44,555 bases of DNA from a virus. Lineage: Duplodnaviria; Heunggongvirae; Uroviricota; Caudoviricetes. Each line of letters starts with the position of its first letter. Position 1 is the stretch's first letter. The notes beneath the pieces are model-generated. The model did not search any database. It was not told the origin of the DNA and saw only the letters and a program-made list of their open reading frames with translations. The stretch is taken from IMG/VR virus record IMGVR_UViG_2734482571_000013; one strand, 5' to 3'. A program made the translations under genes and the position numbers. This document shows, one piece after another, positions 11,759 through 34,469 of the stretch.

Positions 11759-11896
11759 ACGTTACTAGATCAAAGAGCATTAGTTCATATGTAAATTGAC
11801 ATTTTTCTGGCACAGGGGAGAGCTAGCGTGGTTGTCCGCTTTGTGCCAATAGCGGACATTGCTGGCTCATGGTATGTTAGTTTAAGGAGGCAGGTT

Positions 11897-12919
11897 ATGC
11901 CCTGTATTTCGCTGTGGTATAATAGTTGCGCAATTGATACAAGGGAGCGTTACATCGTGAAAATTGTTTTCGAGGTTAATGGAAAGAAAGTTCCACTAAA
12001 ATCTTTAAAATACATAAGCAAAAAAGATCAACTCGAAGTAATGAAAAACTGGTTCTTTGAAAACTTTGAAGATCCGGCAAATGCTTGTCCGTATGAAAGT
12101 AGAGAAGGTGGCTATGCTTACATATATGGCGGGCCGTATGATGCGAGCGAAGAACTACAATCCATCTTCGGTCAATATGTTAAATCTGAGTATATTGAGG
12201 AATTAGTAGATGAATTACAAACACAATGTTTTGACTGGTCTGGAAACTCAAATAATATAGATGATTGGTACGATGATGATATCTACGACGCTGTAACGTC
12301 TTCCGGTAATCCGTATTTAAAATTCATTGATAATATCGATAAAATAAAAAAACTTGCAAAAGATAAAACTGAACAACAGCAAAAAAACCACTTGCTTAGT
12401 TTGCTCTACACGAATGTTATTACAGCTTTGGAAACGCTTTATGTTGAGCTATTCATTAATTCTATAGAGAAAGATGATGTCTACATAGCCAATTGTATAG
12501 AAAAAGGTAAGACTGAATTTAAAGTAAGCAAAGATATTGCTGCGTTGCCTTTCAAGGGTGAACCCATCGAGAAAATTAGGGGAGAGCTAATCAGGTCAAT
12601 CAAGGAACACTTGATCAGTGCAAGCTGGCATAGCACTAAAAAGGTAATCGACCGCTATGAAGCTACATTCGATATAAAAGTACAAAAAGACTGTCCGATA
12701 GAAGCTATTGAATTGGCAACCCTCAATCGAAATCACTTAGTGCATCGTGGTGGAAAGGATAAAGAAGGGAACCTCGTAGTGATTACAGACCAGGATCTTG
12801 AAACGCTGATTGAAAATGCATCGAACCTGGCAATTATGCTCTACAACAGTTTAAATGTAGCAACGAATAAAACCACCATTTTGCAACCAGATGACAAACC
12901 GTTCATTCATGAATTTTAA
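11897..12919 (+). CDS. Island gene A: uncharacterised protein with C-terminal RNxxxH (HEPN-like) motif, candidate abortive-infection/defence effector (340 aa)
   Basis: AAGGAGG Shine-Dalgarno 6 nt before ATG 11897; alternative starts GTG 11828 and GTG 11957; AT-rich codon usage; motif LATLNRNHLVHRGG near C-terminus; no similarity to phage structural or replication proteins that I recognise. Confidence 0.6.
   Translation: MPCISLWYNSCAIDTRERYIVKIVFEVNGKKVPLKSLKYISKKDQLEVMKNWFFENFEDPANACPYESREGGYAYIYGGPYDASEELQSIFGQYVKSEYIEELVDELQTQCFDWSGNSNNIDDWYDDDIYDAVTSSGNPYLKFIDNIDKIKKLAKDKTEQQQKNHLLSLLYTNVITALETLYVELFINSIEKDDVYIANCIEKGKTEFKVSKDIAALPFKGEPIEKIRGELIRSIKEHLISASWHSTKKVIDRYEATFDIKVQKDCPIEAIELATLNRNHLVHRGGKDKEGNLVVITDQDLETLIENASNLAIMLYNSLNVATNKTTILQPDDKPFIHEF
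11915..11923 (+). promoter_or_regulatory. Extended -10 element TGgTATAAT (possible promoter if island gene A starts at GTG 11957)
   Basis: Exact TGnTATAAT match; AGGGAG at 11943-11948 and in-frame GTG at 11957 lie downstream; conflicts with the alternative start at 11897. Confidence 0.25.
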
Positions 12920-12934
12920 TAGCGCAGGTCATAC

Positions 12935-13936
12935 ATGGATATTCGCACACGAAAGACAAAATTTTTAGAGTCGTTAGATTCAACTGAAGTGATACGCAAA
13001 GCAGTAAGTCTCGCTATAGATTGCATTATTGATAATCATAATAGTAATGAAGATACCCCCTTAGTTATTACCAGCTATGATGATCTCTGTAGAATCCAGG
13101 TGCTAAATTATGTACAGGAGTTTTGCGAAGCTGCATTCCCTGATATGGATGAATATTACTTTAGTCCTAACATACTTCGCATCAACGGCAAGACTAGTGA
13201 AGAAGCTTGTATTAACTTAATTAAACTCTTAAGAAGTACAAAAGGCATGCTATTCTGGTCCGATGCCCCATCGTGGTTCGCTAGCCTCCCCGACGGATTA
13301 TTCCATGTTGTTAACATTGATCAAAAAATCGTTACTCGCGGCCTTAATAAGAAAAACTCTAAGCCGACAATAATCAATAAAGATTACAGTGTAGATACAC
13401 TACTATCAGAGCTATTTTTGAATGGCGCACACATGGAGCAACCCAACGTACACAACGTTTCTGAGGGAAACATGAAGTTCTATGATGAATGCCATGCTGG
13501 ATTAATCAGACCAATACCCGCTCCAATAGGCGCGTCATACGATGAAGAGATCACAATTAATTCTCCAGATTGGCAAAAGCTCGCGTGTGTAGCTTTACGC
13601 CGCTATCAGTCGAAGGAATGTCATGACGGAATGCAATGGGATACAACCGATCATGGTTGGACTGATGTAATCGCGTATCCATTCGTCGAAGAAATACAAT
13701 CAATGGATAATAGTGGTTATCGACAATGTTTAGTTGGGCTGGTCACAATAAACAATTCAAATGCAAATTCTCCGTACCTATCTACCGTTTGGATACATCC
13801 ATTTTATCGCAGGAGAGGGTTATTAAGTAAGTTATGGCCAAAATTACAAGAGTTATATGGAAGTAACTTCGAAATTGAGCGACCTAATGAAAATATGAAA
13901 GCATTTCTGAAAAGTGCGAAACACGCAGATTACTAA
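12935..13936 (+). CDS. Island gene B: uncharacterised protein with GNAT-like C-terminal region (333 aa)
   Basis: Starts 15 nt after gene A stop; C-terminal segment CLVGLVTINN...WIHPFYRRRGLLSKLWPKLQELYG...NMKAFLKSA resembles GNAT acetyl-CoA-binding motifs A/B, but the match is imperfect. Confidence 0.6.
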   Translation: MDIRTRKTKFLESLDSTEVIRKAVSLAIDCIIDNHNSNEDTPLVITSYDDLCRIQVLNYVQEFCEAAFPDMDEYYFSPNILRINGKTSEEACINLIKLLRSTKGMLFWSDAPSWFASLPDGLFHVVNIDQKIVTRGLNKKNSKPTIINKDYSVDTLLSELFLNGAHMEQPNVHNVSEGNMKFYDECHAGLIRPIPAPIGASYDEEITINSPDWQKLACVALRRYQSKECHDGMQWDTTDHGWTDVIAYPFVEEIQSMDNSGYRQCLVGLVTINNSNANSPYLSTVWIHPFYRRRGLLSKLWPKLQELYGSNFEIERPNENMKAFLKSAKHADY

Positions 13937-19623: not shown

Positions 19624-20120
19624 TGCCTCCATCATTACGAAAAGTCGTTGCTGCTGCTATTGGTGGCGGAGCAATTGCTATAGCATCAGTGTTAATCACT
19701 GGCCCAAGTGGTAACGATGGTCTGGAAGGTGTCAGCTACATACCATACAAAGATATTGTTGGTGTATGGACTGTATGTCACGGGCATACAGGAAAAGACA
19801 TCATGCTCGGTAAAACGTATACCAAAGCAGAATGCAAAACACTCTTGAATAAAGACCTTGCCACTGTCGCCAGACAAATTAACCCGTACATCAAAGTCGA
19901 TATACCGGAAACAACGCGCGGCGCTCTTTACTCGTTCGTTTACAACGTGGGTGCTGGTAATTTCAGAACATCGACGCTTCTTCGCAAAATAAACCAGGGC
20001 GATATCAAAGGCGCATGTGATCAGCTACGTCGCTGGACATATGCTGGCGGTAAGCAATGGAAAGGTCTCATGACTCGTCGTGAGATTGAGCGTGAAGTCT
20101 GTTTGTGGGGTCAACAATGA
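19623..20120 (+). CDS. SAR endolysin (R21-like lysozyme, 165 aa)
   Basis: N-terminal Gly/Ala-rich weakly hydrophobic SAR segment [20 protein letters not shown] followed by lysozyme domain; downstream of pinholin. Confidence 0.85.
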
Positions 20121-20574
20121 GCAGGGTAACCGCGATTATCTCCGCTCTGGTTATNNNNNNNNNNNNNNNNNNNNNNNNNNNNNNNNNNNNNNNNNNNNNN
20201 NNNNNNNNNNNNNNNNNNNNNNNNNNNNNNNNNNNNNNNNNNNNNNNNNNNNNNNNNNNNNNNNNNNNNNNNNNNNNNNNNNNNNNNNNNTTAATGCACT
20301 CGATGCTAAATACACGAAGGAGTTAGCTGATGCGAAAGCTGAAAATGATGCTCTGCGTGATGATGTTGCCGCTGGTCGTCGTCGGTTGCACATCAAAGCA
20401 GTCTGTCAGTCAGTGCGTGAAGCCACCACCGCCTCCGGCGTGGATAATGCAGCCTCCCCCCGACTGGCAGACACCGCTGAACGGGATTATTTCACCCTCC
20501 GGGAACGACTGGTAATGATGCAGGCCCAACTTGAAGGTGCTCAGCAATACATAACCGAGCAGTGTTTAAAGTAA
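20117..20574 (+). CDS. Rz i-spanin (interrupted by assembly gap; frame differs across gap)
   Basis: N-terminus [12 protein letters not shown] before gap; after gap ...[40 protein letters not shown]...; ATGA overlap with endolysin stop. Confidence 0.7.
20155..20290. other. Assembly gap (136 N) inside Rz
   Basis: Run of N. Confidence 1.
20330..20515 (+). CDS. Rz1 o-spanin lipoprotein embedded in +1 frame of Rz (61 aa)
   Basis: Signal peptide with lipobox VVGC, proline-rich mature region [15 protein letters not shown]. Confidence 0.75.
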   Translation: MRKLKMMLCVMMLPLVVVGCTSKQSVSQCVKPPPPPAWIMQPPPDWQTPLNGIISPSGNDW

Positions 20575-22169: not shown

Positions 22170-22306
22170 TATATGGCTGATTTATAATTGTGAGTTTAAT
22201 ATTATGTTGACTCACTCATTGATCCAATACCTAACTTTACCAGCAACACCTCCGCCCCCAGTAGCACTGGCTGCTGGGGTGCGTTTTATTCATAAAGCAA
22301 GGCTGT

Positions 22307-23095
22307 ATGAGCGAGAAATTAAAGATAGTCTATCGCCCATTACAAGAATTGTCACCGTATGCGCACAACGCCAGGACGCACAGTACTGAGCAGGTGGCAC
22401 AACTGGTAGAAAGTATTAAGCAATTCGGCTGGACTAATCCGGTGCTGATTGACGAAAAGGGCGAAATTATTGCGGGTCACGGTCGTGTTATGGCGGCTGA
22501 AATGCTCAAAATGGATTCTGTTCCGGTCATTGTTCTGTCTGGCCTGACGGATGAGCAGAAAAAGGCGTACCGCCTGGCAGATAATCGCCTGCCGATGAAT
22601 GCTGGCTGGGATGAAGATCTGTTGCGGATGGAGCTGTCGGACCTAATCAATGCTGATTTTGATGTCTCCCTGACAGGCTTCATCCCGGCAGAAATTGATG
22701 AACTGTTGACGGATGTTTTGCCCGGTACAGGAAATGAGGAGGAGCCGTATACGACGAAAATTGATACGCCTGTTTATGAGCCGTCAGGCGGTAAACCGGA
22801 TATCAGTGAACTGTACGACGATACGAAAACTCAGGAGCTGATCAGCCGGATACGTTCGGCGTCCCTTGATCCTGATATTGAGAAATTCCTCCTGTGTGCA
22901 GCAGAACGTCACACGGTGTTTAATTTCAGCAGAATTGCGGACTATTACGCTCATGCCCCCGCTGAAATTCAGTGCCTTTTCGAGGAGTCGGCGCTGGTGA
23001 TCATTGATTATCAGCAGGCTATTGAAAATGGATTTGTCCGAATGACGCAGCGCATGGTGGAGATCATGCATGGCGGGGAGGAGGAATATGCGTGA
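22307..23095 (+). CDS. ynaK: ParB N-terminal (ParB/Srx nuclease-like) domain protein (262 aa)
   Basis: N-terminal YRPLQELSPYAHNARTHS...IIAGHGRVMAA resembles ParB-like domain; I recall K-12 ynaK as a shorter version of this gene. Confidence 0.65.
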   Translation: MSEKLKIVYRPLQELSPYAHNARTHSTEQVAQLVESIKQFGWTNPVLIDEKGEIIAGHGRVMAAEMLKMDSVPVIVLSGLTDEQKKAYRLADNRLPMNAGWDEDLLRMELSDLINADFDVSLTGFIPAEIDELLTDVLPGTGNEEEPYTTKIDTPVYEPSGGKPDISELYDDTKTQELISRIRSASLDPDIEKFLLCAAERHTVFNFSRIADYYAHAPAEIQCLFEESALVIIDYQQAIENGFVRMTQRMVEIMHGGEEEYA

Positions 23096-24020
23096 TGATT
23101 TTTGCGCCTTTATTCTGACTCACGGGCGACCGGACAAAGTTCTGACTTACCGGACGTTGCGTCGTGCTGGCTATACCGGGAAAATTTTTATCGTTGTTGA
23201 TGATGAAGATAAGACACGGCATCAGTACATGGCTGAATTTGGTGAACAGGTGCTGGTATTTTCCAAAGCCGATATTGCTAGTCGTTTTGACGAAGCCGAT
23301 AATTTTAGTGACCGCCGCTCAATTTTTTACGCCCGTAATGCCTGTTTCGACCAGGCAAAACTGGTCGGGTGTAAATACTTCATTCAGCTCGATGATGATT
23401 ATCACGAGTTCCAGTTTCGGGTGGATCGCAACTATGACCAGGCCTATTTCCCGATAAGGAAACTGGATGAGATCCTTTCTGAAATGCTTGCGTACTACGA
23501 ATCAATACCTGCTCTTTCCATCGCTATGTCGCAGGGCGGGGATTTTCTTGGTGACAATGGCGGCCATGCTTCGTGGGTGAAACGCAAGGCAATGAACAGC
23601 TTTATCTGTTCGGTTGATCGACCGTTCTCATTCATGGGGCGCATTAACGAGGATGTGAATACGTACACGAATCTCGGTCGCTGTGGTGAATTGTTTATGA
23701 CGATCGGTGCTGTCCAGTTAGGGCAGAAACAGACGCAGAAAAACAGCGGCGGAATGACCGAGCTGTATCTGGATTCCGGAACCTACGTTAAAAGTTTTTA
23801 CTCCGTCATGTATGCGCCGTCGTGCGTAAAAATCTCACTTATGGGTGCCAGTCATAAACGCATTCACCATCAGGTCACCTGGAACAACGCTGCAGTAAAA
23901 ATCCTTCACGAAAAATACAGGAAGAAGACACCCTGCATATCAATGGGGGTGACAAATGATTCCGTATTCGAAAGTCGAGTCTCTGGCAGCGTGCCGGATG
24001 ACTGCACAACAAATCGCTGA
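23088..24020 (+). CDS. Uncharacterised protein with glycosyltransferase-A-like features (310 aa)
   Basis: GGAGGAGG Shine-Dalgarno before ATG 23088, overlapping ParB-like stop by 8 nt; IFIVVDDED and QLDDDYHEF acidic motifs after predicted beta strands, as in GT-A DxD sites; fold assignment is inference. Confidence 0.5.
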   Translation: MRDDFCAFILTHGRPDKVLTYRTLRRAGYTGKIFIVVDDEDKTRHQYMAEFGEQVLVFSKADIASRFDEADNFSDRRSIFYARNACFDQAKLVGCKYFIQLDDDYHEFQFRVDRNYDQAYFPIRKLDEILSEMLAYYESIPALSIAMSQGGDFLGDNGGHASWVKRKAMNSFICSVDRPFSFMGRINEDVNTYTNLGRCGELFMTIGAVQLGQKQTQKNSGGMTELYLDSGTYVKSFYSVMYAPSCVKISLMGASHKRIHHQVTWNNAAVKILHEKYRKKTPCISMGVTNDSVFESRVSGSVPDDCTTNR

Positions 24021-24207
24021 CGTTCTGGATGTTGATCTGAACCGACTGAAAGAAAATCGGGAAGCAATGACAGATTTTTATGCGGCCATCCGTAAGGGCA
24101 GAGCGAAAGGTGAAGCCGAGTTACGAGCGGCATTGTTTAAGCTTGCCAGAAAAGGGGATGCCTTTGCTCTGCGCGAACTACTCAGGGTGGATAAAAATCA
24201 GGACTAA
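23956..24207 (+). CDS. Small hypothetical protein (83 aa), possibly DNA-binding
   Basis: GGGGGTGA Shine-Dalgarno before ATG 23956; overlaps 3' end of upstream gene; immediately before terminase small subunit. Confidence 0.4.
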   Translation: MIPYSKVESLAACRMTAQQIADVLDVDLNRLKENREAMTDFYAAIRKGRAKGEAELRAALFKLARKGDAFALRELLRVDKNQD

Positions 24208-24210
24208 CTG

Positions 24211-25305
24211 ATGAGCAGACCGGACTGGGGGGCGTTGCAGCAGGAGTATATTGCTGAATACACCCGCTCCGGTATATCTCCGGTGGCATGGTGTGAAGCA
24301 AGGGGACTGAATTACGCAACAGCCCGTCGTTACATCAAAAAAACTCCGAAAAATGCGCAGACAGAAATGTGCAAAACTGCGCAAAAAAGTGCGCAGAAAA
24401 AATCTGCGCAGACTGCACAAAAGCGGAACGAAAAATCTCAGGAAAAAAAGCCAGTATTCGATGCGGGCCTGAATGAGGGCGACGCGGAGGAATTTTCGTT
24501 CTGTCCCGATGAATTCGGCATTTCTGACCAGCAGGCTAAGTTTGCGATGCTTGTTGCTCAGGGTAAAAAGCCGACAGAGGCGTACCGACTAGCCGGTTAT
24601 GAGGGGCAAGGTGCGACAGCTAACAGCAACGCCAGTCGTATGCTTAGAAATGCCAGGGTTTTTCGCGCTATCAGCTACTTCCGCAATCAGTACCAGAAAC
24701 GCTATACCGCAGACCTGGATTTACTAGTGAGTCAGTTGATGGCTATTGTCCTGGCCGACCCCAATCAGCTTGCACAATTTCGCCGTGTTAACTGCCGTTA
24801 TTGCTGGGGCGAGAATCATCTCTACCAGTGGCGCGATATAGCAGAATTCGACAAGGCAGCGGCGCAGGCTTCCAGAGATGGCAAACCCGAACCGGAATAT
24901 GGAGGCCTCGGCTTTGTTGATAACGCCATACCCAATCCGGACTGCCCGAAGTGCTGCGGTGAGGGAACGGGACAGCTTTATATGGCTGATACCACTCTGC
25001 TTGATGGGGATGCGCGGCAATTATATGCAGGGGCAAAATTCGGAAAATTCGGCGTTGAGATCCTGCTGGAGGATAAGGCTGCCGCCCGGCGTGAATTGTT
25101 GCGTTTGTTTTCTGCTGGCGGGGCTTTATGTGCAGATAAGCGGCTACGGGAACTGGAAATTGAACGGCGCAGAATGGAAAACCAGAAGCTGCGCAAAGAG
25201 ATCGAAACGGTGGAAGATAATGAACATCCCCAGCCTGTGGCGATCAATATTAATGTGGTTGATGCCAGAGTAAGGAGTGATGAAGATGATCTCTCCGACG
25301 CTTAA
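24211..25305 (+). CDS. Terminase small subunit (364 aa)
   Basis: N-terminal HTH-like region, immediately upstream of and overlapping the large terminase; Cys cluster CRYCWGE...CPKCCGEG. Confidence 0.7.
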   Translation: MSRPDWGALQQEYIAEYTRSGISPVAWCEARGLNYATARRYIKKTPKNAQTEMCKTAQKSAQKKSAQTAQKRNEKSQEKKPVFDAGLNEGDAEEFSFCPDEFGISDQQAKFAMLVAQGKKPTEAYRLAGYEGQGATANSNASRMLRNARVFRAISYFRNQYQKRYTADLDLLVSQLMAIVLADPNQLAQFRRVNCRYCWGENHLYQWRDIAEFDKAAAQASRDGKPEPEYGGLGFVDNAIPNPDCPKCCGEGTGQLYMADTTLLDGDARQLYAGAKFGKFGVEILLEDKAAARRELLRLFSAGGALCADKRLRELEIERRRMENQKLRKEIETVEDNEHPQPVAININVVDARVRSDEDDLSDA

Positions 25306-26587
25306 TGTGCCTCAGGCGCGATTTCTTTCAATGCCCCATAAATTTAAAGCCTATATTGCTGGTTTTGGCTCGGGCAAAACATGGGTTGGGTGTGGCGGCA
25401 TATGCAAGGGGATTTGGGAGCATCCAGGTATAAATCAGGGATATTTTGCGCCAACGTATCCCCAAATTCGCGATATTTTTTACCCTACAGTGGAAGAAGT
25501 TGCTGCTGACTGGGGATTGAACGTAAAAATTAATGAGGGAAATAAAGAGGTTCACTTTTATTACGGACGCCAGTATCGGGGAACCACTATCTGCAGATCG
25601 ATGGAGAAGCCACAAACGATCGTCGGTTTCAAAATTGGTAATGCGTTGGTGGATGAACTGGACATTTTGCCGAAGGAAAAAGCCAGAACGGCGTGGCGCA
25701 AGATAATTGCACGTATGCGTTATAAGATTGATGGACTTCGCAACGGTATTGACGTTACAACCACGCCGGAAGGATTCAAATTTGTCTACGAGCAGTTTGT
25801 TAAAGCCGTGCGTGAAAAAACAGAGCTGGCCTCACTGTATGGTCTGGTGCAGGCATCTACTTTCGATAATGAAAAGAACCTGCCAGCAGATTACATTCCT
25901 TCGCTTCTTGAATCATACCCTCCAGAGCTGATTAAAGCCTATCTTCGAGGACAGTTTACTAACCTGACAAGTGGTACTGTTTACCATCAGTTTGACCGGA
26001 AACTGAATAATTGCGAAGAAGTGGAGCAGCCAGGGGAGCCGATTTATATTGGGATGGATTTTAACGTTGGAAAGATGGCGGGAATCGTCCATGTGCTGCG
26101 TTTGGGGCTTCCATGTGCGGTAACTGAAATCATCAATGCCTACGATACGCCGGATATGATCCGCATCATTAAAGAACGCTTCTGGCTGTATGATGGGAAT
26201 GATTACCGGAAAGTGAGGGAAATTTATATTTATCCAGATGCTTCCGGGGATTCCAGAAAATCAAGTAACGCAAGTACGACGGATATAGCCCAGCTTAAGC
26301 AGGCTGGTTTTAACGTTGTGGTGAACAGCTCGAACCCGCCAGTAAAAGATCGCGTTAACTCAATGAATGCAATGTTCTGCAATGCCAATGGTGAGCGTCG
26401 CTATAAAGTTAATGTGAAGCGTTGCCCGTTATATGCCGAATCTCTGGAGCAACAGGTCTGGGATGAGAAGGGGGAGCCTGATAAAAAATCTGGCAATGAT
26501 CACCCGAATGATGCCGGAGGTTATTTCATCGTTAAGCAATTCCCTATTGTCAAACCGACCGGAAGAGTCACATCACTTCGGATTTAA
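25277..26587 (+). CDS. Terminase large subunit (436 aa)
   Basis: Walker A-like AGFGSGKT near N-terminus; position before portal. Confidence 0.85.
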   Translation: MMKMISPTLNVPQARFLSMPHKFKAYIAGFGSGKTWVGCGGICKGIWEHPGINQGYFAPTYPQIRDIFYPTVEEVAADWGLNVKINEGNKEVHFYYGRQYRGTTICRSMEKPQTIVGFKIGNALVDELDILPKEKARTAWRKIIARMRYKIDGLRNGIDVTTTPEGFKFVYEQFVKAVREKTELASLYGLVQASTFDNEKNLPADYIPSLLESYPPELIKAYLRGQFTNLTSGTVYHQFDRKLNNCEEVEQPGEPIYIGMDFNVGKMAGIVHVLRLGLPCAVTEIINAYDTPDMIRIIKERFWLYDGNDYRKVREIYIYPDASGDSRKSSNASTTDIAQLKQAGFNVVVNSSNPPVKDRVNSMNAMFCNANGERRYKVNVKRCPLYAESLEQQVWDEKGEPDKKSGNDHPNDAGGYFIVKQFPIVKPTGRVTSLRI

Positions 26588-26589
26588 TT

Positions 26590-27996
26590 ATGGCTGATAT
26601 ATCAACACCCAACCTCGACTATAACGATATGCTGGAGGCGTGGGATATTAACGACGCACTGATGGGCGGTACGCTTGAAATGCGCAGGCAGGGGGAAAAT
26701 TATCTCCCAAAATGGCCTAACGAAGATGAAGACGCTTATAAAAAACGCCTGTCTGTGGCTACGCTACTTCCTGTGTATGAAGAAAGCATCAAGCAAAATA
26801 TTGGGCGCATATTTGCAGAGCCGACAGTATTGAGTGAGGAAACGCCGGCAAAAATCAGGGAATATGCAGAAAATATCGACATGGAGGGGAGCCGACTGGA
26901 TGTGTGGGCGCAGCAATTTTTCAGCCTCGCATTTCAGTATGGTGTGGCACATGCGCTGGTGGACTATCCACGAACGGATATGAAAGAGATTCGGACAAAA
27001 GCCGATGAAAACGCGACCGGTGGTCGTCCGTACGTTACGATGCTGAATCCACGCCAGGTTATTGGATGGAAATCGAAAGTTGAAAAAGGGAAAGTTGTTC
27101 TCACTGATTTGCGTATAAAAGAGGTCATCATTATTGATGGTGATGATTTCGGGCAGAAGAAGGTGGAGCAGATCCGCCATATTATGCCCCGTCGAGTTGA
27201 AATTTATCGACGTAGCGAAGGCACTAATGGCGAATCTGTCTGGACGCTTCATGAGTCATGGAATACCAGCCGTGATGATATTCCTCTGGTAACACTGTAC
27301 ACGAAGAAAACAGGATTTATGCGTGGTACACCGCCATTGCTTAATCTTGGCTTGCTGAATATCAAGCACTGGCAAAGCCAGAGCGAGCAGGACAATATTC
27401 TTCATGTTGCCCGCGTTCCATTGCTGGTGGCCTACGGGCTGGACAGGAATGAAGAACTGACGGTTGGTGCATCCACCGCTACGATTTTTGAGGACAGAAC
27501 AAAAAATGGCCTCGAATATGTTGAACATAGTGGCGCAGCGATAGAATCTGGCGAAACATCACTTGAGAAGCTGGAAAATCAGATGCGTCATGCCGGCGCT
27601 AAACTTCTGCGTGCTGAAAATACATCCACCAAATCTGTTGATCAGACTAATGAAGAGCGAATGCAGGAAAACTCGCCGCTTTATACAATGGCGAACTCCC
27701 TCGAAGATGCCCTCGATAATATTCTCCAGATAATGGCGGAATGGATCGGAGAGAGTTGCGGTGGCAATGTGGATGTGCGCACTGAACTGGATGTATCTGC
27801 CCAGGTGTTTGACTCATCCTCCGCGCTGGCTGTTCAGTCATTGCGTCAGGGCGGTGATATACGTCAGATTGATGCGGTTCGGGTGTTGCAGGCGTTGAAA
27901 TTTATCGATCAGGATTCCCGTCCAGAGGAAGTGATCGATGAATTAAAAAATCAGAGTGTAATGCTGATGGAAATCAATGATGCAAACCGTGAATGA
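26590..27996 (+). CDS. Portal protein (468 aa)
   Basis: Size and position immediately after large terminase. Confidence 0.7.
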   Translation: MADISTPNLDYNDMLEAWDINDALMGGTLEMRRQGENYLPKWPNEDEDAYKKRLSVATLLPVYEESIKQNIGRIFAEPTVLSEETPAKIREYAENIDMEGSRLDVWAQQFFSLAFQYGVAHALVDYPRTDMKEIRTKADENATGGRPYVTMLNPRQVIGWKSKVEKGKVVLTDLRIKEVIIIDGDDFGQKKVEQIRHIMPRRVEIYRRSEGTNGESVWTLHESWNTSRDDIPLVTLYTKKTGFMRGTPPLLNLGLLNIKHWQSQSEQDNILHVARVPLLVAYGLDRNEELTVGASTATIFEDRTKNGLEYVEHSGAAIESGETSLEKLENQMRHAGAKLLRAENTSTKSVDQTNEERMQENSPLYTMANSLEDALDNILQIMAEWIGESCGGNVDVRTELDVSAQVFDSSSALAVQSLRQGGDIRQIDAVRVLQALKFIDQDSRPEEVIDELKNQSVMLMEINDANRE

Positions 27997-29092
27997 ACGG
28001 CTGCGTGATGAATCAATTGCTCATGCAGTCTGGATATCCCGCTATAGCACTGGCGTGGCTGCCAGAATGGTGAAAATACTGAATGACAGCGATGCGGAAC
28101 TTACTGCTCGCCTGCTGATAGCACTGGACAGCCTCGATCCAGGTAGTTTTACCGTTAAGCGCCTGGAGTCACTTCTGGCGAGCGTCAGAGAGGTTAACCG
28201 CACTGCTATTAACAGCATGTTTACCAGTCTCTCCGGAGAGCTGAACGAGCTGGCAATTTATGAGGCTGGTTATCAGTTAAGTCTGTTTGATTCTATGCTA
28301 CCTGATTTTGTTGCTGATGTTCACCCTCTGGTTGGTATCTCTCCTGATGCACTTTATGCCGCTGCAATGGCGCGACCATTCCAGGGACGACTGCTCAGTG
28401 AGTGGGCCTCAGATCTTGAGGCGGATCGGCTCAGACGCATAACAAATACAGTGCGTCAGGGTTTTTTGCTGGGGGATACCAATGAGCAGATCGCAAGAAA
28501 AATTCGGGGACATGTCAGTAAGGGATTTCAGGATGGTGCATTGCAGATGAGCCGGGCTAATGCGGCCAGCATTGCAAAAACAGCGGTTGGACATCTTGCT
28601 GCTACTGCCCGTGAGAGTTTTGCCAGCGCGAATAATGATTTGATTAAGGGTAAGCAATGGTTATCAACGCTTGATAATCGTACTACGCCACAATGTCGAA
28701 TCAGGGATCGCCTCAAATATACGCTGAATAATAAACCTGTAGGTCACAGCGTGCCTTATTTGCAGGGGCCGGGAAAAATTCATTTCTGCTGCCGCTCAAC
28801 GGAAACGTTCATTCTGAAATCAGCGAAGGAACTGGGTATTGATGTTCGCGATATTTCCCCGGCTGAGCGGGCCAGCATGGATGGCGTGGTGGCCGGAGAT
28901 ACAACCTACAGGGAATGGTTTTTGCGTCAGCCTTACACCAGACAAAAACAGATTGTGGGGGAAAGCCGAGCAAAGCTGATTCGGGATGGTGGTATGTCGC
29001 CAGATGAATTTTACACCGATAAAGGCGAATGGCTGACGCTGAAGCAGCTCCGTGAGCGTGATGCACAGGTATTCAGAAAAGCAGGGATTTAA
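27977..29092 (+). CDS. Head morphogenesis / minor head protein (Mu F-like or SPP1 gp7-like family, putative)
   Basis: Position after portal, 371 aa; family assignment from position and size only. Confidence 0.5.
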   Translation: MMQTVNERLRDESIAHAVWISRYSTGVAARMVKILNDSDAELTARLLIALDSLDPGSFTVKRLESLLASVREVNRTAINSMFTSLSGELNELAIYEAGYQLSLFDSMLPDFVADVHPLVGISPDALYAAAMARPFQGRLLSEWASDLEADRLRRITNTVRQGFLLGDTNEQIARKIRGHVSKGFQDGALQMSRANAASIAKTAVGHLAATARESFASANNDLIKGKQWLSTLDNRTTPQCRIRDRLKYTLNNKPVGHSVPYLQGPGKIHFCCRSTETFILKSAKELGIDVRDISPAERASMDGVVAGDTTYREWFLRQPYTRQKQIVGESRAKLIRDGGMSPDEFYTDKGEWLTLKQLRERDAQVFRKAGI

Positions 29093-29112
29093 ATAAATCA
29101 TTTATTACAACA

Positions 29113-29139
29113 GGCTACCTTCGGGTGGCCTTTTTTATT
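29113..29139 (+). terminator. Intrinsic terminator with UUCG tetraloop
   Basis: GGCTACC-TTCG-GGTGGCC followed by TTTTTTATT. Confidence 0.6.
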
Positions 29140-29196
29140 GCTGCGATCCGGATGGTGAGCAGCGTAACTGTCGGAAGACTTAAACCAGGTACTAAT

Positions 29197-29961
29197 ATGA
29201 AACTGAAAACGGTCGAGATTAACGGAAAACAATACGCAGAAATTGATACTGCTGGCCTGCCAGTTTATGTGCACGACGATGGTAAAGAAATTGGCTTCGA
29301 TGCACCGCTGGCGACAAAAAAAATTACAGAGCTTAATGGCGAGGCAAAAAATCATCGCCTGGCTAAAGAAGCTGCAGAGGAAAAACTGGCTAAGTTTGCC
29401 GCTATCGAAGACCCGAAGAAGGCGATCGAGGCACTGGAAATGCTGTCAAAAATCGACCAGAAAAAGCTGCTCGATGCGGGACAGGTTGACCAGGTTAAGG
29501 CAGAAATTACGAAAAATTTTCAGCAGCAATTAGATGAAGAAAAGCAACGCTCTCAGATGCTGGAGAAGCAGCTTTACGATTCTATGATTGGCGGTAGTTT
29601 TGCGGGTTCAAAATATATTGCCGATAAAATTGCGATTCCGGCAGATTTATTACAAGCCCGCTTCGGGCAGGCATTCAAAGTGGAAGAAGGGAGGATCGTT
29701 GCTTATGACGCTTCCGGCAACAAAATTTATTCCCGCGCGAAGCCTGGCGAACTGGCGCAGTTTGATGAGGCGCTGGAGTTCCTTGTCGAAAATTACCCTC
29801 AGAAAGACTACATCCTGAAAGCCAGTGGCAACAATGGCGGCGGCTCCCGTCCGACACAGCATGATATTGGTCAGAAAACGATGAAACGCTCTGCTTTTGA
29901 TGCACTGGATGTTGCAGGTAAGCAAAACGCATTGAAAGACGGTATCACAATCGTTGATTAA
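29197..29961 (+). CDS. Putative scaffolding protein
   Basis: Charged, coiled-coil-like sequence (EEKLAKFAAIEDPKKAIEALEMLSKIDQKKLLD...) directly upstream of major capsid gene; listed ORF extends to 29125 through the terminator, so internal ATG 29197 preferred. Confidence 0.55.
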   Translation: MKLKTVEINGKQYAEIDTAGLPVYVHDDGKEIGFDAPLATKKITELNGEAKNHRLAKEAAEEKLAKFAAIEDPKKAIEALEMLSKIDQKKLLDAGQVDQVKAEITKNFQQQLDEEKQRSQMLEKQLYDSMIGGSFAGSKYIADKIAIPADLLQARFGQAFKVEEGRIVAYDASGNKIYSRAKPGELAQFDEALEFLVENYPQKDYILKASGNNGGGSRPTQHDIGQKTMKRSAFDALDVAGKQNALKDGITIVD

Positions 29962-30059
29962 CACATTTGTCAGCTTCCGGATGGGAGCTGGTGTCAGGGC
30001 TGGATAGCTCATTACTCCATCTATTCACAATTACGCAAATTTTTAAGGAATATTTAATT

Positions 30060-31199
30060 ATGGCTGGAAATACCCTGACCGGGTTGATCCCGACTATTTA
30101 TACCGCCCTGGATGTTGTATCCCGTGAGCAGGTAGGTTTTATCCCTGCGGTAGCAAAAAACGCAAAAGCTGACGCCGCAGCAAAAGATCAGACGGTAACC
30201 GCGCCAGTTGCGCCTGAGGCGAAAACCGAAGATATCGTACCGGGGCCGTCAGCTCCGAATACCGGTGATCAAAATATTGGCACTGTTGATGTAAAAATTA
30301 CTAAATCCAAAATGGCACCGGTTAAATGGAATGGTGAAGAACAACTGGCTCTTGGCCCTTCAGGGACTTACAACACCATTCTGGCTGATCAGTTCAAGCA
30401 GGCTTTTCGCGCCCTTGCAAACGAGGTTGAGGCTGATCTTGGTGCGTTGTATTTCGGTGCTTCCCGCGCCGTGGGAACCGCAGGGACAACGCCGTTTGGT
30501 GTTAAAGATGATCTTTCTGATGCTGCTCTGGCTCGTCAGGTTCTGGAGGATAACGGCGCACCGACAACCGATCTGCAGATGGTGCTTGGCTCCACTGCCA
30601 TTGCTAATTTGCGCGGAAAACAGTCTGTATTGTTTAAAGTGAATGAATCCGGCACTGAACAGCTACTGCGTGAGGGCGTGTTGGGGCGTCTGGAGGGATT
30701 CAATATTCACAGTTCGGCAGGTGTGAAACGAGCGCCAAAGGTTGCTGCAACTGGTTATCTCGTGAATGGAGAGAAAAAAGAAGGCGATGTTCTTATTTCC
30801 ATTGATACTGGTTCGGGGAGTATTTCTGCAGGTCAGATTGTTACGTTCGCTGGTGATCCGAATCAGTATGTTGTGGCAGCAGCGACCAGCAATCTGATTA
30901 CTCTTGCAGCGCCCGGACTGCGTCAGGATCTGGCCGATGATACTGCCATCACAGTTGTTGGGGCCTTTACTGCAAATATGGCGTTTGATCGCAACGCGTT
31001 TCTGCTGGCATCCCGTACTCCGGCAATGCCGGAAGGTGGCGATAATGCTGATGATGTAATGAATGTTACGGACCCGATTTCAGGGATTACGTTCCAGATT
31101 GCACTGTATCGTCAGTATCGCCAGGTGCGCTATGAAGTTGGACTGGCATGGGGTGTTTCATCAGTGAAGCCGGCACATGGTTGTCTGATTCTTGGTTAA
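30060..31199 (+). CDS. Major capsid protein (379 aa from MAGNTLTGL)
   Basis: AAGGAA Shine-Dalgarno before ATG 30060; size, position after scaffold, followed by strong hairpin. Confidence 0.75.
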   Translation: MAGNTLTGLIPTIYTALDVVSREQVGFIPAVAKNAKADAAAKDQTVTAPVAPEAKTEDIVPGPSAPNTGDQNIGTVDVKITKSKMAPVKWNGEEQLALGPSGTYNTILADQFKQAFRALANEVEADLGALYFGASRAVGTAGTTPFGVKDDLSDAALARQVLEDNGAPTTDLQMVLGSTAIANLRGKQSVLFKVNESGTEQLLREGVLGRLEGFNIHSSAGVKRAPKVAATGYLVNGEKKEGDVLISIDTGSGSISAGQIVTFAGDPNQYVVAAATSNLITLAAPGLRQDLADDTAITVVGAFTANMAFDRNAFLLASRTPAMPEGGDNADDVMNVTDPISGITFQIALYRQYRQVRYEVGLAWGVSSVKPAHGCLILG

Positions 31200-31210
31200 A
31201 CATTCAAACG

Positions 31211-31230
31211 GGGCTTCGGCCCCATTTTTA
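31211..31230 (+). terminator. GC hairpin with UUCG tetraloop plus T-run after capsid gene (terminator/attenuator)
   Basis: GGGC-TTCG-GCCC followed by CATTTTTA. Confidence 0.5.
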
Positions 31231-31241
31231 ATGGGGGGCAT

Positions 31242-31418
31242 ATGGCCGGATTAACTAAAGAGCAAAGAGCACAGCGTGAAGCCGCACAAAAAACGCAAAT
31301 TGAGTTAGTGGTTATGGTGACCGATTATCAGATGTTTCCCGGCGCACCAACTATCGCTAATGTTCATCCTGATGAAGTTGACAACTGGAAGGCTATGGGC
31401 TGGAAAACTCAGGAGTAA
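31242..31418 (+). CDS. Possible small head-associated protein (58 aa)
   Basis: Hand-translated MAGLTKEQRAQREAAQKTQIELVVMVTDYQMFPGAPTIANVHPDEVDNWKAMGWKTQE; fills the gap between capsid and next gene; below ORF-track cutoff. Confidence 0.4.
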   Translation: MAGLTKEQRAQREAAQKTQIELVVMVTDYQMFPGAPTIANVHPDEVDNWKAMGWKTQE

Positions 31419-31421
31419 CAC

Positions 31422-31817
31422 ATGATCACTTACGTGACCTGTGATGACGTTGATAATGCGTTTGGGAACGCCTGGACGAGTGAGAACGCTAAAAATAAAG
31501 CTGTTTTAATGGCTAATGCCTGGCTTAATGGCTTCAACCTGAAAATTAACCCATCCCGTATTCCGGAAGAGGTAAAACTTGCGGGAGCATATGCAGCCAG
31601 AATTGCCTCATTCGGTAAGTTGTTTCAGCAGAAAAATGATTCTGGCGTTGTTATCAGTAAAGCCGTGTCGGCTGACGGGGTCAGTGTATCGAAATCATTT
31701 TCTGAGTTGCCAGCAAACAGCACTGCATTGCTTGAACCCGATTTACAGCTTGCGATAGCACTGCTGAAACCGTACGGACTTAGTCGCTCACAAGTCAGGG
31801 TTGTGAGGGGGGGATAA
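31422..31817 (+). CDS. Head-tail connector / head completion protein (putative)
   Basis: Tightly packed small genes between capsid and major tail protein, stop-start coupled. Confidence 0.5.
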   Translation: MITYVTCDDVDNAFGNAWTSENAKNKAVLMANAWLNGFNLKINPSRIPEEVKLAGAYAARIASFGKLFQQKNDSGVVISKAVSADGVSVSKSFSELPANSTALLEPDLQLAIALLKPYGLSRSQVRVVRGG

Positions 31818-32200
31818 TGGGGCTTCGTGAAGAGATTCAGTCAGAGGTTGCCGCTGCTTTTGATGAGGATTTAGCGGACGCCGTGAGTGATTTTTCTGGT
31901 TCTTACGTTACGCACCGGCACTGGGATCCTGTGACGGAAACTGGCGGCGAATCAACCGCAATCTATACCGGGCGAGGCGTGTTGACACGTTATAAGCTGG
32001 GCAGAATTGATGGGATTAATATTTTGCATGGTGACCTTAAATTAACCGCTCTGGTATGCGAGGTTACGGATAAACCAGCTGTCGACCATATTATTGAGAT
32101 TTATGATCCTGTATCAAGGCAGTTACAACGATACGAGGTAATTACAGCAAGTGTAGATCCTTCCGCATCAGTTTACTCTATCCAGTTAAGGAGAGCGTAA
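31817..32200 (+). CDS. Head-tail joining protein (putative)
   Basis: Stop-start overlap with neighbours; position. Confidence 0.5.
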   Translation: MGLREEIQSEVAAAFDEDLADAVSDFSGSYVTHRHWDPVTETGGESTAIYTGRGVLTRYKLGRIDGINILHGDLKLTALVCEVTDKPAVDHIIEIYDPVSRQLQRYEVITASVDPSASVYSIQLRRA

Positions 32201-32581
32201 ATGGCAAAGGCATGGGATATAGAACCGTCAATATTTGCCGGGATGATTGAGGAAGATGTAGGGCTGAAGATTCGCTACATCGCTATGCAGATTCTTACTG
32301 CTATTGATATTGCTGCTCCGGTTGATACCGGACGTTTCAGAAATAACAACCTGGTGTCGTTACAGCATCCCGATTTTGGTATATCTGATAACGTGGATCC
32401 GAACGGTACGATTGCTGTTCAGCGTGGGATCGGGGTTATTTCGAAAGCTGCAAATTACGGGGTTATTTATATCCAGAATAACCTTCCTTATGCAGAGGCT
32501 CTTGAAAACGGTCATTCACAACAAGCGCCAACTGGCGTGTATGCCAACGCTTTTCATGGTGTTTTACAGGCTTACAAATGA
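32201..32581 (+). CDS. Head/tail completion protein (putative)
   Basis: Position; coupled to neighbours. Confidence 0.5.
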   Translation: MAKAWDIEPSIFAGMIEEDVGLKIRYIAMQILTAIDIAAPVDTGRFRNNNLVSLQHPDFGISDNVDPNGTIAVQRGIGVISKAANYGVIYIQNNLPYAEALENGHSQQAPTGVYANAFHGVLQAYK

Positions 32582-32970
32582 AGTTTACTGAAATCAGAAA
32601 TACGGTTATTTCCAGAATGACGGCACAGACGATTATTGATGGAAAAGACGTATTGTATCCGAACGGGCCAACGTTCGATCCTTCCGGTAAGTTAATCTGG
32701 GCGCGGTTAAGTAATATTCCCGGGCAGGCTGGAGTTAATGAAATTGGCGCGGGGCCGGTTGTTTATCGCACGGGGATAATCATTATTCAGTTATTTGTCC
32801 CCGCAGGTTCTGGTTCAAAACTCATTACTGAGACAGCCGATAAATTGCGGGAACTGTTTGAGTTTCAGGATGACGATCGTCTCAGTTACCAGGCTGTTTC
32901 CTCAATAGCCGTTGGCGAAAAGAATGGCTGGTTCCAGCTTAATCTTCAAATTCCATATCGCGCGCTCTAG
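32578..32970 (+). CDS. Tail completion / tail terminator protein (putative)
   Basis: Position immediately before major tail protein. Confidence 0.5.
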   Translation: MKFTEIRNTVISRMTAQTIIDGKDVLYPNGPTFDPSGKLIWARLSNIPGQAGVNEIGAGPVVYRTGIIIIQLFVPAGSGSKLITETADKLRELFEFQDDDRLSYQAVSSIAVGEKNGWFQLNLQIPYRAL

Positions 32971-32996
32971 CGCAATTAATGACATAGGAGGCTCCT

Positions 32997-33959
32997 GTGA
33001 GTTCAGGTGCAAAGGTTATCTCGGCATTTATCCGGGAGACGGTTGCAGGCACTACGCCAGCAAGTGGTGACTGGAGTTTATTAAAACGCACAAGCTGGGG
33101 AGTAAAACCCACCCAGAATAAAGGCGAAAATAATGAGATTGGTGGCTCCCGGATGGCTCAGGGGGCGACGCCTGGCACTGTGGATGTCGGCGGTGATGTT
33201 GGTACCAAATTTCGCTGGGGTCAACATGATGATTTTCTTGCATCCTGTTTCGGCGCGGAATGGTCAGGCGATTCTCTGACAATGGGGAATGAGCGAATAA
33301 CATTTTCTCTGGCGACCTATGCGTCCGATGTCGGAATTGCCTCTGTCGTCAGAGGAGCGCAGGTTGGCTCATGGAAAATGCAGATCCCTAACGACGGCGA
33401 TATTACAGCGACCGTAACCTTTGCCGGACTGGACTGGGAATCAAAGGCCGATGATACGAATTTTATCAAAGGCGAACCTGTGGATAGTGCAGGAAAGCTA
33501 CGTTATTCGTTTAAGGAGGTTTCAGCAGTAAGCCTGAATGGTGTTGCCGGAGGTAACGGTTTTTGTATCGACAGTTTTGATATTCAGTTCGATAACAAAC
33601 TCCAGACACAGCGTTGTATCGGGACTGGCTCGCCTTATGCAGGAGCAAATATTCCGACTACTTTTACACCGTCCGGTACGGTGACGCTTTCATGGTCTAA
33701 AGCCGCGTGGGAAATCTGGAGTAAAACACTGACTGGAGAAACAGTTCCGTTCAGCTTCACGCTTTCGAATGGAGAGGGGGCATACACTTTCAGTTTCCCG
33801 AAGGTTCAGGTGTCAGGTGAATGGCCTGATGGGGGTAATAGCGACATTATCCAGGTTCAATTGAGCATTACCGCAGCAGATGAAGCACCTACGATAACCA
33901 GAAAAAAAAATTCCCCGGCTGCCGTGATCGCAAAAGCCAGTGCTGAGGCGATTAGTTGA
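32997..33959 (+). CDS. Major tail (tube) protein (320 aa)
   Basis: GTG start with TAGGAGG Shine-Dalgarno; position before tail assembly chaperone genes. Confidence 0.65.
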   Translation: MSSGAKVISAFIRETVAGTTPASGDWSLLKRTSWGVKPTQNKGENNEIGGSRMAQGATPGTVDVGGDVGTKFRWGQHDDFLASCFGAEWSGDSLTMGNERITFSLATYASDVGIASVVRGAQVGSWKMQIPNDGDITATVTFAGLDWESKADDTNFIKGEPVDSAGKLRYSFKEVSAVSLNGVAGGNGFCIDSFDIQFDNKLQTQRCIGTGSPYAGANIPTTFTPSGTVTLSWSKAAWEIWSKTLTGETVPFSFTLSNGEGAYTFSFPKVQVSGEWPDGGNSDIIQVQLSITAADEAPTITRKKNSPAAVIAKASAEAIS

Positions 33960-34007
33960 TTTTCCGTTATTCCTCCTGTGGTACTGCCCTACAGGGGGAC
34001 GCATTGA

Positions 34008-34469
34008 ATGAGGTTATGGATGTTTATTCTTAATCAGAAAATTATCATTGGTGGAGAACGCTGGTTTACGCCAATGAAGGACTTAAAACCTGTAGACGGG
34101 TTAAAACTGTTGGTGGCAAGCAGCGATAACGATCAGTATCGCTCCCGTAATGCATTAATCCGTCGCCACATTGAGAAAATGGATGCCAGTTTGCACGTCG
34201 GAACGAAGGAGTTTGATATTTCAAAGGTTTCCGAGGTGGATTCTGTTGATGATTTACTCATTGATAATGCCGCTCGTTATCTGCTGAAAGACTGGAAAGG
34301 GGTTGGTGAACTGGTTAATGGTGTTGAGGTTGCACTGGAATATACGGCAGAACGAGGGATCGCGCTGCTTAAGCAGAATCCAGAGTTGTACTGGCAGATC
34401 CTTGCAGAAGCAGCCAGCATCGCCCAGGGTAAAGAGCAGCAGAAGCAGGATACGATAAAAAAGCCATAG
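34008..34469 (+). CDS. G: Tail assembly chaperone, G-like
   Basis: Position before tape measure; ends with slippery heptamer; acidic protein; start uncertain (34008 or 34020). Confidence 0.7.
   Translation: MRLWMFILNQKIIIGGERWFTPMKDLKPVDGLKLLVASSDNDQYRSRNALIRRHIEKMDASLHVGTKEFDISKVSEVDSVDDLLIDNAARYLLKDWKGVGELVNGVEVALEYTAERGIALLKQNPELYWQILAEAASIAQGKEQQKQDTIKKP
34457..34463 (+). promoter_or_regulatory. Programmed -1 ribosomal frameshift slippery site A_AAA_AAG
   Basis: Heptamer in G frame 5 codons before G stop; the -1 frame stays open to 34777. Confidence 0.7.

Follow-up and report, generated by a model that had tools for sequence, protein, structure and literature searches.

What is the function of two overlapping genes, one for a ParB-like protein and the other for an apparent glycosyltransferase, that lie next to the terminase genes of a prophage? 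This question is raised by positions 22,307 to 24,020 of IMG/VR record IMGVR_UViG_2734482571_000013, a 44,555-nucleotide stretch of Caudoviricetes DNA (hereafter the window), where the pair belongs to a Rac-like lambdoid prophage of Escherichia coli. An initial annotation, made from the sequence alone, had read the two genes as a possible DNA modification module. We find that the second protein has the sequence motifs and predicted fold of a GT-A glycosyltransferase of the TAGT family, that its constant partner is a C-terminal domain of the first protein and not the ParB-like domain, and that the enzymes which make the classical acceptor bases were not detected in the window. We tentatively propose, at slightly less than an even chance, that the two gene products are the subunits of a conserved glycosylation module of phages, whose target would be the phage DNA or a DNA-associated molecule. 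The features of the pair, all on the plus strand, are as follows.

22307-23095, plus strand: partner gene 'ynaK' in its intact form, ParB-like; ATG start, 262 amino acids (aa), matching phrog_620 over its full length
22307..22717, plus strand: ParB/Srx N-terminal domain, residues 1 to about 137 of the partner
22742..22786, plus strand: linear motif PYTTKIDTPVYEPS of the partner, placed by alignment and by the per-residue confidence (pLDDT) of the model
22799..23056, plus strand: predicted helical C-terminal 'TAGT-partner' domain, partner residues about 165-250
23079..23095, plus strand: coupling junction, with AGGAGG at 23079-23084, the glycosyltransferase ATG at 23088 and the partner TGA at 23093-23095
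23088..24020, plus strand: predicted TAGT-family GT-A glycosyltransferase gene, 310 aa; PGAP 'GREB1-related protein', WP_001614535.1
23391..23399, plus strand: DxD codons (D102-D103-D104), the metal and nucleotide-sugar motif of the glycosyltransferase, placed by alignment

The second gene encodes a predicted GT-A glycosyltransferase

The product of the second gene matches Pfam PF20691 (TAGT, 'TET-associated glycosyltransferase') over residues 8-222, with an E-value of 3.7e-34 and a score of 118.9 bits against a gathering cut-off of 27.5 bits, and the homologues that we found likewise carry this domain. It also matches phrog_842 (7.5e-104), which PHROG labels beta-glucosyl-HMC alpha-glucosyltransferase. 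The initial annotation had pointed to two acidic motifs placed as in DxD glycosyltransferases, and this placement holds. In an alignment of 30 sequences, D38 and D41 of IFIVVDDED (residues 33-41) and D102-D104 and Y105 of QLDDDYHEF (residues 100-108) are invariant, and in the AlphaFold2 (AF2) model the two motifs close strands beta2 and beta4, as the GT-A fold expects. R14 and E188-D189 are invariant too, and together with D102-D104 they fit the R...DDD...ED pattern that the kinetoplastid base-J glucosyltransferase (JGT) shares with those GT-A enzymes of phages that are proven to act on DNA, as set out in a recent preprint (bioRxiv 10.1101/2023.12.21.572611).

Structure prediction and fold search, both of which had been suggested as checks, returned a GT-A transferase. 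Residues 1-180 of the AF2 model are mostly at pLDDT >90 and their strand order is that of the GT-A fold. The top Foldseek matches in the PDB are all GT-A enzymes (COLGALT1, LH3, glycogenin, ThuS/SunS, LARGE1 and SpsA), with a probability of 1.0 but a TM-score of only 0.3-0.4, a low value that arises because the C-terminal third is poorly modelled. Among the predicted viral structures of BFVD, the best matches are TAGT-domain proteins with TM-scores of 0.70-0.78, including a T-even-type beta-glucosyl-HMC alpha-glucosyltransferase. The protein is predicted to be soluble and mildly basic, with no membrane segment. Judged by sequence and model, it is a DxD-type nucleotide-sugar glycosyltransferase of the TAGT family with a GT-A fold, and its motif set is that of a catalytically intact enzyme.

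A mechanical list of open reading frames (ORFs) opens this gene at ATG 23070. We set the start at ATG 23088, giving 310 aa, because the conserved N-terminus in an alignment of 30 homologues (60-98% identity) is MRDDFCAFILTHGRP. The glycosyltransferase ATG and the partner TGA then overlap by 8 nt (23088-23095, ATGCGTGA), and AGGAGG lies 3 nt 5' of the ATG.

The constant partner is a C-terminal domain

Across about 140 non-redundant phage loci, the C-terminal domain of the partner, with or without the ParB-like N-terminal domain (ParB_N), lies directly 5' of the TAGT gene in about 98%. The hosts of these phages are Proteobacteria, Firmicutes, Actinobacteria and Bacteroidota, and the pair also occurs in a haloarchaeal virus. 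Three samples were examined. In the first, a ParB-like gene was directly upstream of the TAGT gene in 83/83 related loci. The second held 75 viral contigs of greater divergence, whose identity to their seed is about 40-46%; the C-terminal domain was upstream in 72, three of these having one intervening gene, and the remaining three contigs start inside or at the TAGT gene, so that all 72 assessable loci were paired. Of the 72 loci in the third, 63 were paired; five lay at contig edges, two were TAGT fragments, one had its partner placed between two TAGT genes, and one, L238, was a true exception. In this high-GC phage (9947-12431), the TAGT gene stands directly before terS/terL with no recognisable partner domain upstream, and its product has a short N-terminal extension; it is the sole clear exception to the pairing.

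The partner was present in 83/85 loci of the non-redundant set, and the stop and start overlapped in 80 of the 83 pairs; the offsets range from -4 to -35 nt, and -11 and -8 are the commonest. The 8-nt overlap first noted in the window, where both genes are present and intact, is thus not a chance feature. Within the same set, 62 partners carry ParB_N, whereas 13 do not, despite the presence of upstream sequence; stand-alone C-terminal domains of 127-136 aa are common and always stand beside a TAGT gene. These sequence comparisons identify the C-terminal domain, and not the ParB domain, as the constant partner of this TAGT clade, a point that the initial annotation had overlooked in treating the ParB-like domain as the functional partner. 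Co-inheritance and, as judged from the gene overlaps, translational coupling of TAGT with this domain of about 115 residues extend over phages from four or more bacterial phyla and reach a virus of haloarchaea.

TAGT domains were seen fused to SAM-methyltransferase, sulfotransferase and P-loop kinase-like domains and to a second TAGT; a viral contig search with the P-loop-TAGT fusion as query returned unfused TAGTs only. Tailoring or donor-type domains, either fused or adjacent, occur in P0248, P0252, P0281, P0290, P0270, P0304 and P0315, at L091 8246-8650 and at L096 8394-9212, and are of SAM-methyltransferase, sulfotransferase, P-loop kinase-like and heptose-1-P adenylyltransferase-like types. 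Some related loci carry NDP-sugar genes as neighbours. Tandem TAGT paralogues follow one partner gene in L182, L183 and L224 (10001-11690) and in L230 (8185-10846), whilst P0266 and P0268 are TAGT-TAGT fusion proteins; what at first looked like 840-nt 'insertions' in the TAGT genes of L182, L183 and L224 are in truth such tandem paralogues. The tandem and fused copies suggest stepwise addition of more than one sugar, and fusions, tandem copies and NDP-sugar genes together form the pattern expected when a tailored glycan is built.

The ParB-like partner

The partner matches phrog_620 at 1.7e-90. Its N-terminal domain scores just over the cut-off of Pfam PF02195, matches the ParB/Srx fold and has the conserved Gly-x-x-Arg P-motif (invariant G57-x-G59-R60, GHGR). 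It is closest to the N-terminal domains of phage DNA methyltransferase fusions (phrog_498, 6e-51, partner residues 3-141; PADLOC MTase_II, 1.5e-38, residues 10-144), and a Pfam scan detected no methyltransferase domain in the partner itself. Domains of the ParB_N type differ in NTP specificity (PMC12704722). The initial description of a ParB-like nuclease-domain gene therefore stands for the N-terminal domain, but the nuclease role found no supporting match to a nuclease family in Pfam and profile scans, and the protein has no helix-turn-helix (HTH) or dimerisation domain and a pI of 4.5. A canonical partition ParB was also considered and rejected. TIGR00180 gives 38.1 bits against a cut-off of 58.45 and covers residues 11-94 only, and a linker and a novel helical domain follow residue 137 where HTH and dimerisation domains would be needed. 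ParA is not annotated in an identical prophage and, as regards parS sites, no notable repeats were found around the two genes. Some sources label the partner 'transcriptional regulator'; literature searches gave nothing functional on 'ynaK' and no papers for 'Ld25A' with 'ParB'.

In an identical sequence, PGAP called only the first 258 nt (L001 20108-20365) and labelled them a pseudogene of ynaK, 'missing C-terminus'. Yet the ORF is unbroken at 262 aa and conserved over its full length across genera, so the pseudogene call looks like an annotation artefact, perhaps originating from the truncated 87-aa YnaK of K-12.

Beyond the ParB_N domain, the linker PYTTKIDTPVYEPS has invariant Y148, T149, K151, P155, Y157 and P159, in the pattern Y-T-x-K-x-x-x-P-x-Y-x-P, and its Y, P and Y are invariant across 31 diverse partners. 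It is predicted to be disordered in the monomer model (pLDDT <50) and could serve as a peptide for docking or itself accept a glycosyl group. The C-terminal domain is helical, with about 90 residues and conserved R201-H202, D212, Y214, E226 and D234; no Pfam family and no solved homologue were found for it. The whole protein is strongly acidic, with a net charge of -24, and is predicted to be soluble with no membrane segment.

These properties raise an alternative, namely that the module glycosylates protein. The TAGT would most probably modify its own partner, at the invariant Tyr/Thr of the disordered segment and in the manner of glycogenin or GREB1, or else a packaging or replication protein, and the glycosylated acidic partner would then have a regulatory role, mimic DNA, or function in the virion or in packaging. 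We regard this as rather unlikely but deserving of serious attention. Strict one-to-one pairing with translational coupling suits an enzyme with a dedicated substrate, as do the invariant Tyr/Thr/Pro motif in a predicted disordered segment and an acidic partner with no DNA-binding domain. The structural neighbours of the transferase include GT-A enzymes that glycosylate peptides or proteins (glycogenin, ThuS/SunS, COLGALT1), although these matches are generic to the GT-A fold at TM-scores of 0.3-0.4. The TAGT domain of GREB1 O-GlcNAcylates a protein, the oestrogen receptor ER-alpha (PMC7968844), but the characterised microbial TAGTs all act on DNA. Furthermore, the conserved polar residues of the helical domain (R-H, D, Y, E and D) suggest more than the display of a peptide, the context of the pair is always DNA replication or packaging, and ParB_N is of the DNA-methyltransferase type.

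The pair lies in packaging and replication modules

The initial annotation had placed the coupled pair immediately before the packaging genes, and comparison across phages upholds this as a conserved module that heads the packaging operon. The window runs through recT/recE, kilR, sieB, ydaS/T-like genes, replication genes, a Q-like gene, lysis genes and trkG before the pair, and through terS, terL, portal, head and tail genes after it. The immediate neighbours are as follows.

22256..22279, plus strand: terminator-like hairpin with a 10 bp stem and then a T-run, from a pattern scan only
23998..24207 (or from 23956), plus strand: small ORF between the glycosyltransferase gene and terS, 69 aa or 83 aa
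24211-25305, plus strand: terS, from profile matches and PGAP annotation
25277-26587, plus strand: terL, from profile matches and PGAP annotation, followed by the portal gene

The strong hairpin parts the trkG moron from the partner gene, and a pattern scan found no consensus promoter 5' of the pair. Lacking such a promoter, the pair is presumably read from the antiterminated late transcript.

Pairs that carry ParB_N precede terminase genes in the window, in Lactobacillus phages c5 and phi jlb1, in Nocardia phage NTR1 and in a Porphyromonas phage with only 27% identity; phage c5 has the order cos site, ParB, TAGT, terL, and in Haloarcula virus HHTV-2 the pair is about 3 kb upstream of terL. 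The large terminase (TerL) is the most recurrent neighbour family among 17 diverse contigs. Pairs without ParB_N, by contrast, sit in replication modules: between DNA polymerase and clamp genes, beside a sugar-nucleotidyltransferase, in L091; after primase and polymerase in L096; and between primase and helicase in Vibrio phage pv27. One further pair of this type, in a metagenomic phage (L076 11669-12768), consists of a 134-aa partner without ParB_N and a TAGT, with a QueD/PTPS gene and a 245-aa apparently DpdA-like ORF within 1-2 kb after the TAGT gene. If that ORF is DpdA-like, the glycosyltransferase would have a 7-deazaguanine DNA-modification pathway as its neighbour.

These contexts bear on whether the pair acts on phage macromolecules at all. 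The ParB-like protein might instead be a packaging, partition or regulatory factor and the glycosyltransferase a lysogenic-conversion or metabolic enzyme for envelope glycans or small molecules. Prophages do often carry O-antigen conversion glycosyltransferases, and the 'transcriptional regulator' label of the partner would fit. In the preprint, about 65% of phage glycosyltransferase contigs have no 5-methylpyrimidine oxidase (5mYOX) or thymidylate synthase (ThyS) neighbours and are left unexplained, being set aside as not obviously DNA hypermodification, and these may have other acceptors (bioRxiv 10.1101/2023.12.21.572611). However, both proteins of the window are predicted to be soluble, no Gtr-type flippase or membrane partner accompanies them, and their genes lie in a late operon and not in a moron expressed during lysogeny. 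Strict coupled pairing across phyla, and in the replication modules of lytic phages, is likewise ill suited to envelope conversion, and we consider this explanation highly improbable.

Enzymes that make an acceptor were not found

Whilst the TAGT family supports the idea of a DNA modification module, in that its microbial members act on DNA, the DNA acceptor which that idea implies was not borne out, since no enzyme making 5-hydroxymethylcytosine (5hmC) or 5-hydroxymethyluracil (5hmU) was found. Several observations weigh against DNA as the target. PGAP annotation of the identical prophage and Pfam scans, which included no TET-specific profile scan, gave no TET/JBP (5mYOX) enzyme, thymidylate-synthase-like hydroxymethylase or C5-methyltransferase in the window. 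The complete 31.8-kb genome of c5 has no acceptor-making enzyme annotated and its larger hypothetical ORFs have no Pfam match, and the complete 38.3-kb genome of phi jlb1 has no such enzyme and, in its early region, no unassigned ORF large enough to encode one. Such enzymes are also not among the 25 commonest of 67 neighbour families in the 17 diverse contigs, a survey which a single TET gene could escape. With none of these enzymes, the classical acceptors 5hmC, 5hmU and glucosyl-5hmC are not provided, and we know of no GT-A enzyme that glycosylates canonical DNA. Phages of the phi adh and c5 types have reportedly been restriction-mapped normally, which would argue against bulk hypermodification. 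The partner is not an obvious DNA binder, given its acidity and its want of an HTH; no ParB-TAGT fusion was seen among the long TAGT homologues; and GREB1 illustrates that TAGT domains can glycosylate proteins.

A further point on the same side comes from phage phiJL001, whose TAGT-like gp22 lies two genes from a dUMP-hydroxymethylase-like gene, has no partner and is not matched by the hidden Markov model (HMM) of the present clade. That a TAGT with a hydroxymethylase has no partner suggests that the partner may replace the acceptor pathway and not target DNA; glycosylation of the partner would explain why it occurs exactly where a hydroxymethylase is absent. We had also considered phiJL001 as evidence against DNA modification, its DNA being cut normally and no base-synthesis genes being noted in the 9g paper. 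This argument was dropped because a dUMP-hydroxymethylase-like gene does lie nearby and the TAGT belongs to a different, partner-less clade.

Classical TAGT chemistry might nevertheless operate if 5hmC or 5hmU, or a sugar on them, were supplied in trans, whether by the host, by a second prophage or by a phage enzyme that has escaped recognition. Family membership and the full catalytic motif set are compatible with this, many neighbouring ORFs have no family assignment, and L096 has a C5-methyltransferase about 1 kb downstream of its TAGT gene. The literature also ties ParB genes to 5mYOX clusters. Against it stand the negative results for the window (Tet_JBP, thymidylate-synthase-like and C5-methyltransferase families), for c5 and phi jlb1, and for the common neighbour families. 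Moreover, to our knowledge E. coli has neither a 5mC oxidase nor a dNMP hydroxymethylase. Supply in trans therefore seems very unlikely.

Comparison with known systems

The T2/T6 TAGT enzyme puts a second glucose on glucosyl-5hmC (PMC13216743, PMC13390438). It shares with the glycosyltransferase of the window the Pfam family, the GT-A fold and the DxD and R...DDD...ED motifs, but the T-even systems make glucosyl-5hmC with a dCMP hydroxymethylase and an alpha-glucosyltransferase, and none of these genes is present in the window. TAGTs of the T-even and phiJL001 types are distant from the window protein, with an identity of about 22% for a homologue from an Aeromonas phage. The one of these distant loci that was examined, phiJL001 gp22, has no partner gene. 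JGT is likewise a TAGT-type GT-A enzyme with active-site motifs as in the window protein, and acts on DNA after replication; it requires 5hmU from the JBP1/2 hydroxylases and has no reported partner subunit, whereas the window has no such hydroxylase. Along with JGT, phage GT-A enzymes that glycosylate 5hmC are treated in bioRxiv 10.1101/2023.12.21.572611.

The nearest described arrangement is that of the C5-methyltransferase/TET (5mYOX)/GT-A clusters (Burke et al. 2021, PMC8256090; bioRxiv 10.1101/2023.12.21.572611), which have the same GT-A motif pattern and ParB-like and terminase neighbours. These clusters supply 5mC and then 5hmC as the acceptor, whilst the window has neither methyltransferase nor dioxygenase, and the C-terminal partner domain is not mentioned for them in the available portions of PMC8256090 and bioRxiv 10.1101/2023.12.21.572611. 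A proposal cited in PMC8256090 is that ParB directs DNA-modification machinery during packaging.

The ParB_N-DNA methyltransferase fusions of phages (phrog_498, PADLOC MTase_II), which are enriched in prophages, have an N-terminal domain of the same kind as the partner (PMC12704722). In the window, the TAGT-partner domain takes the place of their methyltransferase domain, and the glycosyltransferase is separate and, by its overlap, translationally coupled. Such fusions often lie beside terminase genes. As for GREB1, its C-terminal domain is homologous to the catalytic domain of the window protein, hence the PGAP name, but it is a 1949-aa animal protein with zinc-binding and helicase-like domains that O-GlcNAcylates ER-alpha; the name 'GREB1-related' is uninformative on function here, although GREB1 does establish that TAGT domains can take protein acceptors.

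A possible mechanism

In the reading that we tentatively favour, the pair would be made from the late transcript together with the terminase, and the partner would bind the transferase in a complex, recruiting or completing it. The partner might then carry the transferase to phage DNA or to the packaging or replication machinery, with the ParB_N form acting at packaging, as the ParB_N-methyltransferase fusions would suggest by analogy, together with the proposal in PMC8256090. After replication, a host nucleotide-sugar would be moved onto phage DNA or a DNA-associated acceptor, leaving a sugar mark that could be anti-restriction or packaging-related. Since this would work with no phage TET, 5mYOX or hydroxymethylase, the acceptor would not be phage-made 5hmC or 5hmU, unlike in classical TAGT systems. 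Taken by itself, a DNA or DNA-proximal target is a possibility that we place somewhat below even: it is favoured by the genomic context, by family precedent and by the methyltransferase-type ParB_N domain, and weakened by the want of a known acceptor base and by the acidity of the partner.

A bolder reading, which on balance we find doubtful, is that the partner-linked TAGT clade is a new phage glycosylation system off the hydroxymethyl-pyrimidine route. Either a holoenzyme would glycosylate a canonical DNA constituent or a DNA end, or the transferase would furnish the small acidic partner with a glycan that in some cases carries methyl or sulfate groups. If true, the first option would mean a new DNA-modification chemistry in about a third of E. 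coli genomes, in phages of several phyla and in viruses of archaea; the second would mean a virus-encoded cytoplasmic glycoprotein at the replication or packaging machinery.

Fate of the module in K-12

The initial annotation described the Rac counterparts in K-12 as truncated, which is correct for ynaK, cut to 87 aa, but not for the glycosyltransferase gene, which is deleted outright. Homology of MG1655 (L090) to the window ends at 22560 and resumes at 34118. This corresponds to a clean deletion of about 11.6 kb in the K-12 Rac prophage, equal to window positions 22561-34117, which removes the glycosyltransferase gene, terS, terL, the portal gene and head genes and fuses codon ~85 of ynaK to 'ydaY', a tail-region gene. 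Because this deletion has destroyed the module in K-12, intact copies such as that of the window are the informative ones.

Other features of the window

The small ORF at 23956-24207 is kept between the glycosyltransferase gene and terS in all enterobacterial relatives and matches the middle of the small-terminase family phrog_309 (8e-23). It overlaps the 3' end of the glycosyltransferase gene; at 310 aa, the product of the latter exceeds most homologues by about 22 aa. In close prophage relatives (L038, L039 and L040), about 1 kb of inserted sequence interrupts the terL match after codon ~32 (for example L038 12258-13261); candidate explanations are an intron, an intein or the insertion of a homing endonuclease.

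Elsewhere, adjacent early ORFs at 11828-12919 (363 aa) and 12935-13936 (333 aa) have only weak, sub-threshold Pfam matches, to a HEPN/RES N-terminal domain and a GNAT acetyltransferase, and could form a defence or toxin-type moron; the second of them is frameshifted in strain EC2. Runs of N mask 732 bases in total (20155-20290, 40779-40913, 41176-41386 and 41583-41832). The first breaks an Rz-like lysis ORF (20080-20574), and the other three lie in the tail-fibre/host-specificity region.

Novelty and implications

The family assignment was already available in Pfam, PHROG and PGAP, and the ParB-GT-terminase neighbourhood was known for TET clusters, which makes the earlier reading of the locus reasonable, and it is partly supported by our analysis. 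In the literature searched, which did not cover the founding TAGT paper (Iyer et al. 2013), we found no description of the following: the obligate partner domain, which also occurs free of ParB; the coupling of that domain to nearly all members of this TAGT clade, in phages of different bacterial phyla and in an archaeal virus; the division into packaging and replication contexts; and the consistent absence of an acceptor-making pathway.

The partner-linked, TET-less form of TAGT is widespread: it is matched in 1607 of 5426 complete E. coli genomes, near full length in 889, and further copies are known from Lactobacillus phages of dairy origin, from oral Porphyromonas phages and from a virus of haloarchaea. 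The intact E. coli prophage copy is a tractable system in which to study it: there are just two genes, the lysogen is inducible, and K-12 can serve as a background that has no module. TAGT enzymes are known to complete the hypermodification of phage DNA, which shapes resistance to restriction, CRISPR and type IV systems. If DNA is what the present pair modifies, many temperate phages would bear an unrecognised epigenetic mark affecting restriction, defence sensing and sequencing; if protein is glycosylated, bacterial viruses would have in this pair a compact equivalent of GREB1-type glycosylation.

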